A stretch of 64,000 bases of DNA, taken from positions 880-64,879 of the forward strand of contig JBBTRX010000002.1 of NCBI GenBank assembly GCA_038064975.1. Reading direction: 5' to 3'. The position numbers were made by a program, and so were the translations under genes. The stretch comes from Patescibacteria group bacterium. GTDB lineage: Bacteria > Patescibacteriota > Minisyncoccia > UBA6257 > 1-14-0-10-40-38. The notes beneath the pieces were generated by a model. The model did no database searches and was not told where the DNA came from. It saw only the letters and a list, made by a program, of their open reading frames with translations. Shown here piece by piece: positions 58,483 to 61,400 of the stretch (position 1 is its first letter; every line of letters starts with the position of its first letter).

Positions 58483-61400
58483 AGTTCGTCTAACGATTAT
58501 TAGTACTCCTCGGCTAAAATCATTGCTGATCTTACACCTAGAGCCTATCAACGTGGTAATCTTCCACGAATCGCTGTATCACCGAAGTGATACGTATGTC
58601 TCATCTTGGAGTAGGCTTCGTGCTTAGATGCTTTCAGCGCTTATCCCTTCCGCGCAATAGCTACCCAGCGCTTCACTTGGTAGCAAAGCTGGTACACCAG
58701 CGGCGCGTTCATCCCGGTCCTCTCGTACTAGGGACGACTCTCCTCAAACATACAACGCCTGCAGCAGATAGAGACCAACCTGTCTCACGCATTATTCTAG
58801 ATATAGTAAATAATTACTAATATAGATTCCATTATTACTAATGGCTTGGACTATACCACCATCCTCCGAAGCTCGTATGAGCGAAGGAGGAGATCGACGT
58901 GTTAACCAGTTTTTAAAACTGATTCTGATCTTCGTAAGATCAAGTCTCTACGGGGAACGTGATCGTGTTAATGATGTTACGTTCTTCCCTCGGAATTGCC
59001 CTTATAAATTCAGGTTTGAAATGTATAAGGGTTTCTCCGATATGAGTCGATTTTGCATTTCAACGTTACCGTTGAAAGCCGCCGTGTGTTCAACAAGCTC
59101 CTATCTAAAACTTGTTAAAGATTTCGATGTCGTTATTGCATGAGTTCATTATTCTGACGGTCTGAACCCAGCTCACGTATCCTTTTAAGTGGCGAACAGC
59201 CACACGCTTGGGACCTTCTCCAGCCCCGCGCTAGGATGAGCCGACATCGAGGTGCCGAACCTGGTCGTCGCTAGGGACGCTCGGACCAGACTAGCCTGTT
59301 ATCCCCGGGGTAACTTTTATCCGTTGTCTCCCACCTTTCTATGAAGAGTGGTCGGGTCGCTAACTTCTGCTTTCGCATCAGCTCGGCTTGTCGGCCTCGC
59401 TGTTAAGCTGGCTTTTGCGTTTGTACTTTGGGCCCGATGTCCATCCGGACCAAGCCAACCTTATAAACTCCTCCGTTACTTTTTGGGAGGATAACGCCCC
59501 ATTAAAACTGCCCACCAGACACTGTCTCGCATGGTTTTTGCCCATGAGGTTAGACACTAAAACTCTATAGACGGATGTTTCATTGGCGACTCCACGATAC
59601 CCGAAAGCATCGCTTCAAAGTCTCTCCGCTACGCTACGCAATAAAGCCCTAGGGCCAATATCAAGCTACAGTAAAGCTCCCGGGGTCTTTTCGTCTTGCT
59701 GCAGGTACCCCGCGTCTTCACGGGAATCGCATTTTCACCGAGCTCTTCGTTGAGACAGTTCTCCAGTCGTTACACCATTCGTGCGCTTCGGAACTTACCC
59801 GAAAAGGAATTGCGCTACCTTAGAACGATTATAGTTATCGCTGACATTGACGAGGGCTTCGGGCAGTGAGCAGTAACCTTGCGGCCACCACCCCCACCGT
59901 TAACCTTCTCGCATCGGTCAGGCGTCACCCCCTATACATCCTCTTGCGAGTTCGCAGGGAGCTGTGTTTTTGGTAAACAGTCGCCAGAGATACTTTCGCT
60001 GCGGCCCCGCTTGCGCAGGGCAGGCCTTATACCGAAGGTACGGCCGCTTTTTTGCCGAGTTCCTTAAGGATGACTCACTCGTTCCCCTTGGGCTTCTCGC
60101 CCTATCCACCTGTGTCGGTTTACGGTACGAAGCCTGACACGCGAACCTTAGAAGTTTTTCTTGGAAGGCTCTTCAGCTGAATTGACACAGTAAAAACTGT
60201 ATCTTACGAAAGCGTGCGAAATTGCCATTAAAGGCAGATTTCCGGATTTGCCTGGAAATCAATTCTTCTCGCCCTCGACGCCAAACCATTAAGGCGCTCA
60301 TCCTTTTTTCCTTCGTCACTCCATCGAAACGCATCAGGCGGGCCGGAATATTAACCGGCTTCCCATCAGCTGCGGTTTTCACCATTGCCTTAGGATCGCC
60401 TAACCCGTGGTTGATTGCCATTGCCACGGAAACCTTGGATTTTCGGGGTGCCCGTTTCTCACGGGCAATGTGGTTACTCATTCCAACATTTTCTCTTCCC
60501 CACACTCCAGAATCCCTCGCGGGTCTTCCTTCAGCGCGTGAGGAATGCTCTCCTACCACTTACATATTCCGAAGAACATGCAAATTCGCATCTTCGGTAC
60601 TTTGCTTAAGCCCCGGTACATTTTCGGCGCCACTTGCCATCCTCGCTTGCGCGAGGGATCGAGTAGTGAGTTGTTACACACTCTTTAAAGGATGGCTACC
60701 TCTAAGCCAACCTCCTACCTGTCTGTGGCGAATGACTACCTTTTACACTGAGCAAAGATTTAGGGACCTTAGATTGCGATCTGGGCTGTTTCCCTTTCGA
60801 GCATGGAGCTTAGCCCCCATGTTCTAACTACCTTCTTATCTCACGCGGTATTCGGAGTTTGACTCAAAAGTCGAGATTTCTCCCTGTACTTTTGAACCAG
60901 TAGCTCTACCCCCGCGTAAGTCAAAAAAAGCGCCAGTCCTAAAACTGTTTCGGAGAGAACCAGCTATTACCAGGTTCGATTAGCTTTTCACTCCTTACCT
61001 CAAGTCATCCGAAGGTTTTGCACAACCAACCGGTTCGGACCTCCCTCCGATGTTACTCGGAGTTCATCCTGCTCAAGGCAAGCTCACCTGGCTTCGGGTC
61101 TTACACATACGACTAGGCGCCCTATTCAGACTCGGTTTCCCTACGCCTCCTTTCGCTGAGCGAAATTAGACTTGCCATATACATAAACTCGTTGGATCAT
61201 TCTTCAATAGGCACAGCGTCACCCTTGCGGGCTCCGCTTCTTTGTAAGCACACGATTTCAGATACTATTTCATCCCCCTTCCGGGGTGCTTTTCACCTTT
61301 CCCTCACGGTACTAGTTCACTATCGATCACCAAATGTATTTAGCCTTAGAAGATAGTACTCCTATGTTCCCTCGAAGTTATTTTGCCTCGAGGTACTCAA

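Follow-up and report, generated by a model that had tools for sequence, protein, structure and literature searches.

The chloroplast Cr.LSU intron of Chlamydomonas, which we take to occupy the 23S rRNA site considered here, encodes I-CreI. Position 2593 of 23S rRNA is a frequent group I/LAGLIDADG_1 site in CPR bacteria (Tsurumaki et al. 2024, PMC11270868), and the cyanobacterial introns at this position (L2593) combine P7.1 and P7.2 hairpins with short P2 and P5 helices (Haugen et al. 2007, PMC1995217). Introns at this site are already on record in both groups of bacteria. We analyzed a window of 64,000 nucleotides from a Patescibacteria group bacterium in which the 23S rRNA gene carries a 367-nt insert at this site. 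A preliminary description had proposed a ribozyme-only group I intron at an I-CreI-type 23S site in a CPR-like bacterium. Fold, covariation, and homology agree with this proposal, and the insert is very probably a group I intron of the IA type, lacking an ORF and located after 23S position 2593.

Position and boundaries of the insert

The 23S rRNA gene and the intron are on the minus strand, and intron nucleotide p corresponds to 59157 minus the window coordinate. Rfam detected a bacterial large-subunit rRNA at 58480..61839 (-), spanning 3,360 nt for a model of 2,925 positions. Global alignment to E. coli rrlH revealed one 367-nt insertion in helix 93, at window 59156..58790 (-), with E. coli U2593 immediately before it and C2594 immediately after it. 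The preliminary description had claimed a 367-nt insert within a conserved 23S motif, restoration of that motif by joining the flanks, an exon-final U, an insert-final G, and the absence of a same-strand ORF. All of these were borne out: excision of the insert in silico restored the conserved GGGUUCAGACCGU|CGUGAGACAG, the 5' exon ends with U (59157), the insert ends with G (58790), and the sense-strand ORFs overlapping the insert do not exceed 32 aa. An antisense ORF at 58841..59143 (+), 100 aa in length, had zero Pfam matches. The GC content is 0.41 over 58828..59130 versus ~0.45 for the whole window. Among the loci fetched for comparison, the 23S closest to that of the window, from a Paceibacterota MAG, was only 80% identical, and contigs carrying the neighboring ftsW gene stopped short of the rRNA. 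Genes of the window bacterium are present in sequencing runs ERR3858113 and ERR3858114.

Same-site introns of other genomes

At least 83 introns were found at the same 23S site in other genomes, mostly of Patescibacteria, with a best BLAST similarity to the window intron of E 1e-17. The preliminary description regarded an ORF-less intron of roughly 370 nt as a notable variant. This view cannot be maintained, as 68 of the 83 introns have no sense ORF of at least 100 aa and 47 are 300 to 450 nt long. Several same-site relatives do contain ORFs, which are located in loop L6 and match I-CreI (7e-20), I-MsoI, I-CvuI, and Pfam LAGLIDADG_1 (PF00961), which supports the assignment to an I-CreI-type site. 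We take the I-CeuI site, also mentioned in the preliminary description, to be a different 23S position (~1923), with only the I-CreI/I-MsoI/I-CvuI group at 2593. The statement in the preliminary description that rRNA introns occur in CPR bacteria is in keeping with the listing of 2593 as a frequent CPR 23S site (PMC11270868).

Insertion after U2593 and homology to ORF-bearing introns at the same position place the window intron in one lineage with chloroplast and cyanobacterial introns of the I-CreI site and with many Patescibacteria introns at this site. It may have lost the L6 LAGLIDADG ORF of its relatives or may never have possessed one, and the absence of a homing endonuclease indicates that it was probably inherited vertically. 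With the L2593 introns of Patescibacteria, most of which are also ORF-less, it shares the site, the conserved core blocks, and the guide sequence. Nucleotide identity over the core is ~70% with introns L055, L010, and L023. Two metagenomic introns (L120 and L123) are closer, and a metagenome scan for near relatives returned nothing closer than these two and did not recover the window sequence itself. Unlike these introns, the window intron has its own hairpin in the P1 loop (nt 38 to 68), a longer 3' tail, and a terminal 9-mer, and it lacks the first half of a long 5' hairpin found in most family members. According to their published description, the cyanobacterial L2593 introns (Synechococcus C1 and C9, Thermosynechococcus) share with it the site, the short P5, P2, and P7.1/P7.2 (PMC1995217). 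However, cyanobacterial and chloroplast L2593 introns are ~745 to 890 nt long and contain a LAGLIDADG gene, whereas the window intron has 367 nt and none. P7.1 and P7.2 between P7 and P3' are also found in phage introns of subgroup IA2 (T4 td and Twort orf142-I2; for Twort, PMC1995217), which differ by their protein-coding host genes and guide sequences and for which our comparisons detected no sequence relationship.

Group I core and covariation

The preliminary description called for a search with Rfam covariance models. The insert matched RF00028 over the full length of the model (positions 1 to 253) with an E value of 3.8e-7 and 34.5 bits, short of the 50 bits set as the curated gathering score, and this match was absent from the whole-window Rfam scans. 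A published survey of CPR introns used an E-value cutoff of ≤1e-4 (PMC11270868). Same-site relatives scored 40.2, 33.1, and 32.2 bits, all below 50, indicating that the Rfam group I model underscores the whole lineage and that routine scans will miss such introns.

The minimum free energy (MFE) fold of the intron (z = -6.4) recovered P2, P3, P4/5, P6, P7.1, P7.2, P8, and P9, and all core helices, including P7.1 and P7.2, were found in the insert (Table 1). Folding of P1, P7, and P9, suggested in the preliminary description, identified all three helices. In an alignment of 14 related introns, 34 pairs in seven helices were paired in 99.1% of the cells, with compensatory double changes at 16 of the 34 pairs; P9 contributed five of these changes and P7 was invariant. 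None of 500 shuffles matched the pairing values, and slid controls paired in 31 to 45% of the cells. The structures of P8 and of P7.1/P7.2 were kept despite unrelated sequences in the relatives, compensations in P8 being visible sequence by sequence. The conserved core, composed of P3-P4-P5-P6 and P7-P8-P9 with the P3/P7 pseudoknot, is therefore present; lack of a P3-P7-P9 core, together with an intact mature-length 23S containing the segment, was one of two outcomes that the preliminary description named as refuting its proposal. P7 (G[A]GACU/AGUCC) provides a G-C pair next to a bulged A, the putative guanosine-binding site, and the intron has the terminal G. The P7.1 and P7.2 hairpins between P7 and P3' are the hallmark of subgroup IA; exactly two hairpins occupy this interval in 17 of 17 members of the subfamily, with unrelated sequences. 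Besides the Rfam score below the gathering value, an unusually long closing loop of P1 (~68 nt) counts against the group I reading.

Table 1. Features of the 23S rRNA intron and its exon junctions in 5'-to-3' order
Feature	Intron nt	Window position	Strand	Basis or remark
Whole intron, 367 nt		58790..59156	-	After E. coli 23S U2593, helix 93
5' exon end CCGU, 5' strand of P1		59157..59160	-	Splice-site U is U2593 at 59157
5' 9-mer copy AGAAUAAUG	2-10	59147..59155	-	A-rich linker between splice site and exon-complementary element
UGAACUCAUGC, complement of 5' exon GCUGGGUUCA (-16..-7)	9-19	59138..59148	-	Predicted; MFE fold of exon plus L1
CGACAUCGA, includes family-conserved GACAU	25-33	59124..59132	-	Perfect complement of 23S UCGAUGUCG at 59242-59250
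Hairpin UUUAACAAG/CUUGUUGAA in P1 loop	38-68	59089..59119	-	Fold; specific to window intron, missing in relatives
Internal guide sequence CACGGCGG	71-78	59079..59086	-	Sole 8/8 complement of ligated junction within intron
P2 hairpin, GUAA tetraloop	80-99	59058..59077	-	Fold; 4/4 inner pairs with compensatory changes
P3 5' strand AUCGAC	106-111	59046..59051	-	100% paired, 3 double-change pairs
P4-P5 domain, J4/5 AAA, short P5	117-167	58990..59040	-	Fold, covariation
P6, loop short where relatives hold LAGLIDADG ORF	168-205	58952..58989	-	Fold, ORFs of relatives
P7 5' strand G[A]GACU, bulged A then G-C pair	209-214	58943..58948	-	Invariant, 100% paired
P7.1 and P7.2 hairpins between P7 and P3'	216-250	58907..58941	-	Fold; 17 subfamily members
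P3 3' strand GUCGAU	259-264	58893..58898	-	Covariation
P8	266-295	58862..58891	-	Fold; per-sequence compensations
J8/7 and P7 3' strand UGGUGGUAUAGUCC	296-309	58848..58861	-	Invariant block, covariation
P9 CCAUUA-GUAA-UAAUGG	313-328	58829..58844	-	5 double-change pairs; includes third, gapped copy of repeat motif
3' tail: second 21-nt P9-like unit, 3' 9-mer copy, terminal omega-G (58790)		58790..58828	-	
3' exon start CGUG		58786..58789	-	P10 partner of guide sequence

The 3' tail contains a 21-nt unit (58801-58821) that resembles the P9 unit (58822-58842) at 16 of 21 positions. This similarity was reached by 1 of 5,000 shuffles at period 21 and by 2.2% when all periods of 12 to 28 were allowed, and Tandem Repeats Finder reported zero repeats in the tail. 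The duplication is only suggestive.

Guide sequence and proposed splicing reaction

The internal guide sequence CACGGCGG is complementary to the joined exons CCGU|CGUG: GCGG pairs with CCGU to form P1, with a U·G wobble at the splice site, and CACG pairs with CGUG to form P10. Taken alone, this complementarity was reached by 6% of shuffles. The motif GGCGGC is invariant in 14 relatives, and the complete CACGGCGG is found in 65 of the 83 same-site introns. The exon ends with U in 82 of the 83 and the intron with G in all 83. The window intron thus combines the wobble-containing P1 and P10 with an omega-G. The exon sequences that face the guide are themselves invariant.

Judging from the position, fold, covariation, and homology of the insert, catalysis and in vivo splicing would proceed as follows. 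The pre-23S transcript would fold into the P3-P9 ribozyme core, and pairing of CACGGCGG with the exon sequence CCGU would mark the 5' splice site by the U·G wobble. A free guanosine docked in P7 would attack this site, while UGAACUCAUGC, a second intron segment, probably holds nucleotides -16 to -7 of the 5' exon. The terminal G would then take the same pocket, P10 would align the 3' exon, and the exons would be ligated, restoring helix 93 beside the peptidyl-transferase center. This mechanism leaves the terminal 9-mer repeat unaccounted for, which is a point against it.

Terminal repeat and alternative origins of the insert

The sequence AGAAUAAUG is present in two exact copies, at intron nt 2-10 and 359-367; in the plus-strand form, CATTATTCT occurs at 58790-58798 and 59147-59155. 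The direct repeat reported in the preliminary description is therefore real, with its 5' copy shifted by one base from the boundary and both copies internal. A shared 9-mer arose by chance in 0.054% of cases when the first and last 15 nt were shuffled separately and in 0.08% when the composition was that of the entire intron. Pure chance is thus unlikely, with the reservation that the repeat was spotted after the fact. None of the 83 genomic and 10 metagenomic same-site introns has an equivalent end repeat, the only other 9-mer, in L020, being of low complexity and away from the 5' end. We therefore rejected the repeat as a feature of the intron family; it is confined to the window intron.

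An exact 9-nt direct repeat near both ends, improbable by chance, could suggest a DNA transposon or a miniature element whose insertion duplicated a 9-bp target (AGAATAATG), an option that the preliminary description had left open. However, the 367 nt include both copies, and the repeat is thus not a target-site duplication. Excision restores the universal 23S sequence exactly, with no leftover copy, indicating that the target never held the 9-mer. Moreover, the insert has neither terminal inverted repeats nor an ORF, its group I core is fully accounted for, and no such repeat accompanies the other introns at the site. A transposon origin is accordingly already refuted by the sequence and retains a negligible probability.

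Bacterial 23S rRNAs are known to contain intervening sequences (IVSs) processed by RNase III, or expansion segments, in helices 9, 25, and 45. The insert is AT-rich and lies in a 23S gene that, in the E. coli alignment, has small expansions elsewhere. Helix 93 is not among the known IVS helices, however, and the ends of the insert are not complementary (no terminal inverted repeat), leaving no long terminal stem for RNase III. The group I ribozyme fold and its covariation support also argue against this origin, which we consider highly improbable. A decayed or non-splicing group I intron, either retained in mature 23S rRNA or removed by host nucleases to leave a fragmented 23S, would be compatible with the absence of a homing endonuclease and with the Rfam score below the curated threshold; an unspliced bacterial 23S intron, Simkania L1931, is a precedent as cited in PMC11270868 (its reference 28). 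Nevertheless, none of the core pairs tested is disrupted in the window copy, and its J8/7, P7, J6/7, and guide-sequence blocks match those of ORF-bearing relatives exactly. The helix 93 site also adjoins A2602 of the peptidyl-transferase center, where 367 additional nucleotides would hardly be tolerated. Loss of splicing is therefore very unlikely, and an intact group I intron is the reading that we retain.

Pairing of the intron 5' domain with the 5' exon

In most members of the family, a segment in the 5' part of the intron (consensus ACAGUYUGAAYCC) pairs with nucleotides -13 to -5 of the 5' exon, with covariation at the family level. In comparisons of the intron sequences, this family-level pairing is well supported. 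The exon nucleotides involved are a strand of the peptidyl-transferase central loop. In the window intron, UGAACUCAUGC is a shortened version of the element. With one bulge, its duplex with the exon has 10 bp and -12.7 kcal/mol, a value reached by 4% of shuffles. Without gaps, 7 of 9 positions pair, which is not significant for this intron alone. A more distal pairing between CGACAUCGA in the intron and UCGAUGUCG in the exon, perfect over 9 nt, was rejected because its duplex energy was not significant (6.6% of shuffles). It is a tentative proposal, and on balance a doubtful one, that the L2593 introns of Patescibacteria have a second exon-binding element that has not been described before, consisting of this 5' segment pairing with -13 to -5.

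Significance

The pairing between exon and intron 5' domain is the only point of wider interest; it would add a substrate-holding element for group I introns of rRNA if it has not already been described. If the proposal is correct, the exon-pairing element and the short P1 would form a pseudoknot tethering the 5' exon or, conversely, a competing helix hiding the splice site. The 5' 9-mer of the window intron would then be the loop of the pseudoknot, and its match to the 3' end might have a function instead of being a coincidence.

The main significance of the locus is for annotation. The window contains an ordinary ORF-less group I intron, and introns of this kind were already known to be frequent at its insertion site in Patescibacteria. 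The lineage of the window intron illustrates the underscoring by the Rfam group I model (32 to 40 bits for a cutoff of 50). The 23S gene is intact, the additional 367 nt should be annotated as an L2593 group I intron, and the mature 23S rRNA of this bacterium should be regarded as the exons joined together.

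Insertion in the 23S rRNA gene

Global alignment to E. coli rrlH (L130) revealed a single large insertion in the 23S rRNA gene, exactly between E. coli U2593 and C2594, which the Rfam alignment placed in the 5' strand of helix 93. In the RNA sense, the 5' exon ends with ...GGGUUCAGACCGU, the insert runs from CAGAAUAAUG to CUAGAAUAAUG, and the 3' exon begins with CGUGAGACAG..., indicating that the exon terminates in U and the insert in G. The insert contains no sense ORF of more than 32 aa, and the antisense 100-aa ORF, which has no Pfam match, is probably spurious. The preliminary description was accurate in all its factual statements, including those on the position, the ends, the lack of an ORF, and the presence of a 9-nt repeat.

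Other, smaller length differences from E. coli comprise gains of 42, 14, and 9 nt around E. coli 271-287, a gain of 17 nt at 1112, and a loss of 19 nt at 1709-1727. The linked rRNA genes are the 23S and 5S genes only; the 2.1 kb preceding the 23S gene contain neither a 16S rRNA nor a tRNA gene. Downstream, on the same strand, lie a gene for a 267-aa protein without a Pfam match, then ftsW/rodA-family, yceG-family, rpoB, and rpoC genes. Contigs encoding identical ftsW products were found in Logan assemblies of two runs, ERR3858113 and ERR3858114; these contigs stop just short of the 5S gene.

Features of the 23S rRNA gene and its insert (intron nt = 59157 - window coordinate)
Feature	Intron nt	Window	Remarks
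23S rRNA		58480..61839 (-)	3360 nt versus 2925 model positions (Rfam scan)
5S rRNA		58311..58421	After 23S (Rfam)
Insert		59156..58790 (-)	367 nt
Region upstream of 23S		61840..64000
Genes downstream of rRNA genes		48252..58053
Minor 23S length differences		61488..61570, 60642..60658, about 60020
Antisense ORF		58841..59143 (+)
Intron_gpI match		58828..59130	Full length, model 1-253
AGAAUAAUG, two exact copies	2-10, 359-367
Putative exon-binding element UGAACUCAUGC	9-19	59138..59148
CGACAUCGA		59124..59132
UCGAUGUCG		59242..59250	23S
Guide sequence CACGGCGG	71-78
P2	80-99		GUAA tetraloop; minimum-energy fold
P3	106-111 / 259-264		Minimum-energy fold
P4-P5	117-167		Minimum-energy fold
P6	168-205		Minimum-energy fold
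P7.1, P7.2	216-250		Two hairpins between P7 and P3'; minimum-energy fold
P8	266-295		Minimum-energy fold
P9	313-328		GUAA tetraloop; minimum-energy fold

Fold, relatives, and covariation

The insert's minimum-energy fold (z = -6.4 versus shuffles) follows the layout of a textbook group I intron. In P7 (G[A]GACU / AGUCC), a G-C pair comes after a bulged base, as is usual. The guide sequence is the sole 8/8 complement, within the intron, of the ligated junction CCGU/CGUG, and it sets a G opposite the splice-site U, thereby providing P1 plus P10.

Scanning of species-representative genomes with the pattern TATAGTC, a gap of 43-73 nt, and GCGTGAGACAG identified at least 119 loci, labelled mostly as Patescibacteria/CPR lineages with some other phyla. 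From the matches listed, at least 83 introns at the same position (L2593) were extracted, with lengths of 270-824 nt. Among these, U precedes the intron in 82/83, all 83 end in G, and 65 contain CACGGCGG. BLAST tied the window intron to many of the listed introns (best E, 1e-17; ~70% core identity), and scanning metagenomes for a subfamily pattern yielded ten closer relatives. Among these, L120, L122 and L125 (283 nt) and also L123 (343 nt) have 5' regions that resemble that of the window intron almost motif for motif. The preliminary description regarded an ORF-less intron of roughly 370 nt flanked by a direct repeat as a notable variant. Notability is not supported: absence of an ORF and a length near 370 nt are the majority condition at L2593, since, among the matches listed, 68/83 introns have no sense ORF of at least 100 aa, and intron length is below 500 nt in 54 and within 300-450 nt in 47. 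Fifteen of the longer same-site introns among the matches listed encode proteins of 143-211 aa with LAGLIDADG-like motifs; the ORF is located in loop L6 in those inspected, and one product matches I-CreI (7e-20), I-MsoI, I-CvuI, and Pfam LAGLIDADG_1.

The structure of the window intron was transferred to an alignment of 14 family members, with long L6 loops trimmed, and pairs were counted. Standard pairs occupied 99.1% of 470 cells, and 16 of 34 pairs had changed on both sides (70 cells), values for pairing and double changes reached by none of 500 shuffles. When the 3' partners were shifted by 1-3 columns, pairing fell to 31-45%. Compensatory changes were present in each of P2, P3, P4, P5, and P9, P8 was compensated sequence by sequence, and the P6 outer pairs and P7 were invariant. 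The segment between P7 and P3' forms exactly two hairpins, of unrelated sequence, in 17/17 subfamily members; such a P7.1/P7.2 segment is the additional feature that defines subgroup IA. Together, the fold, the covariation, the guide sequence, the U and G ends, and the same-site relatives bear out the initial group I proposal, and we consider the insert to be, with little doubt, a group I intron.

Terminal 9-nt repeat

The terminal repeat is unlikely to occur by chance, a shared 9-mer being found in 0.054% of trials in which the first and last 15 nt were shuffled separately. It had raised the possibility of a transposon-type target-site duplication, which is refuted: neither copy lies outside the 367-nt insert, and once the insert is excised the universal 23S sequence is restored and no copy is left. 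No other same-site intron among the matches listed has such a repeat, nearest relatives included; L120, for example, starts with CAACAAAGAAC and ends with AGUAUUG. The 3' copy ends a tail that starts in P9 and resembles 2.5 tandem 21-nt units (AUUAGUAAUAAUGGAAUCUAU, AUUAGUAAUUAUUUACUAUAU, and CUAGAAUAAUG, in this order). This level of duplication was matched by 2.2% of shuffles when any period of 12 to 28 was allowed. TRF found no tandem repeat in the tail; the 21-nt duplication is only moderately supported. The 5' copy lies within an A-rich linker also present in relatives (CAAACAAUGAAC, CAAAAUUGAAC) and overlaps the exon-complementary element. AUG is the commonest 3' end among the listed same-site introns (56/83). 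In our reading, the repeat may have arisen as a by-product, specific to this lineage, of local duplication within peripheral sequence rich in A and U.

Putative exon-binding element

In most same-site introns among the matches listed, 60-200 nt of intron precede the guide sequence. This leading stretch includes ACAGUYUGAAYCC, which is reverse-complementary to positions -13..-1 of the 5' exon. A perfect 9/9 partner for exon -13..-5 (G.U allowed) occurs upstream of the guide in 47/73 listed introns but in just 5/73 in the downstream part, although this part is longer. Among the matches listed, exon -6 covaries with its partner (A-U, 36 times; G-C, 19; G-U, 6; A-C, 0), and the two genomes with U at exon -8 both have A opposite. 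Intron nt 1-10 of these introns pair with the 10 nt directly before the element (mean of 8.0/10 within introns, versus 5.6 across introns and 4.1-5.9 when slid). By these two pairings, the 5' splice site of same-site introns is predicted to be enclosed in a long hairpin, which must coexist or compete with the short canonical P1. This hairpin spans the splice site in most of the Patescibacteria L2593 introns listed (e.g., L070, L015, L093, and L085). In one half, exon -13..-4 is paired with GUYUGAAYCC; in the other, intron nt 1-10 are paired with the 10 nt that precede a 3-nt linker. Both halves covary, and exon CGU is opposite the linker, which is usually ACA.

The window intron keeps the exon-binding half alone: UGAACUCAUGC is predicted to pair with exon GCUGGGUUCA in a helix of 10 bp that has a single bulge (-12.7 kcal/mol, an energy reached by 4% of shuffles). 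Together with P1, this element would form an H-type pseudoknot with the 5' 9-mer as its loop. The element may tether the 5' exon or, with equal likelihood, act as an alternative helix that is inhibitory. A non-exhaustive search of the text of published papers found no mention of it. Separately, CGACAUCGA in the intron is perfectly complementary to 23S UCGAUGUCG, in the peptidyl-transferase loop strand about 90 nt upstream, with a duplex energy that is not significant versus shuffles. Many relatives have a conserved GACAU motif just upstream of the guide sequence.

Relationship to known introns and detection

In a survey of CPR rRNA genes (Tsurumaki et al. 2024; PMC11270868), position 2593 is among the frequent 23S insertion sites carrying LAGLIDADG_1, Rfam E-values were used to class 45% of 23S insertions as group I introns, and ORF loss was reported, the remainder of the insertion staying highly similar. 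In cyanobacterial L2593 introns, both P5 and P2 are short and P7.1/P7.2 forms an extension of ~65 nt (Haugen et al. 2007; PMC1995217), the same architecture as that of the window intron. Since both site and architecture have been described, the window intron is one more member of the documented L2593 lineage. P7.1/P7.2 is wholly missing in some same-site introns (L070, L101, and L089) that have the core and guide sequence in common with the others. Thus, the subgroup IA hallmark was gained or lost inside a single L2593 site lineage.

The Rfam Intron_gpI model (RF00028) matched the insert at 34.5 bits (E, 3.8e-7; curated cut-off, 50 bits) when only 551 nt around it were scanned. The group I case was not rested on this match because its score is below the threshold and it is not listed in the scan of the whole 64-kb window. 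RF00028 under-scores the L2593 lineage (32-40 bits versus a gathering score of 50). Group I matches were also located at 1317-1579 in L120 and, only 80 nt apart in one 23S gene, at 960-1371 and 1451-1705 in L127. Since the match to the window intron vanishes at the 64-kb scale, standard annotation would miss L2593 introns.
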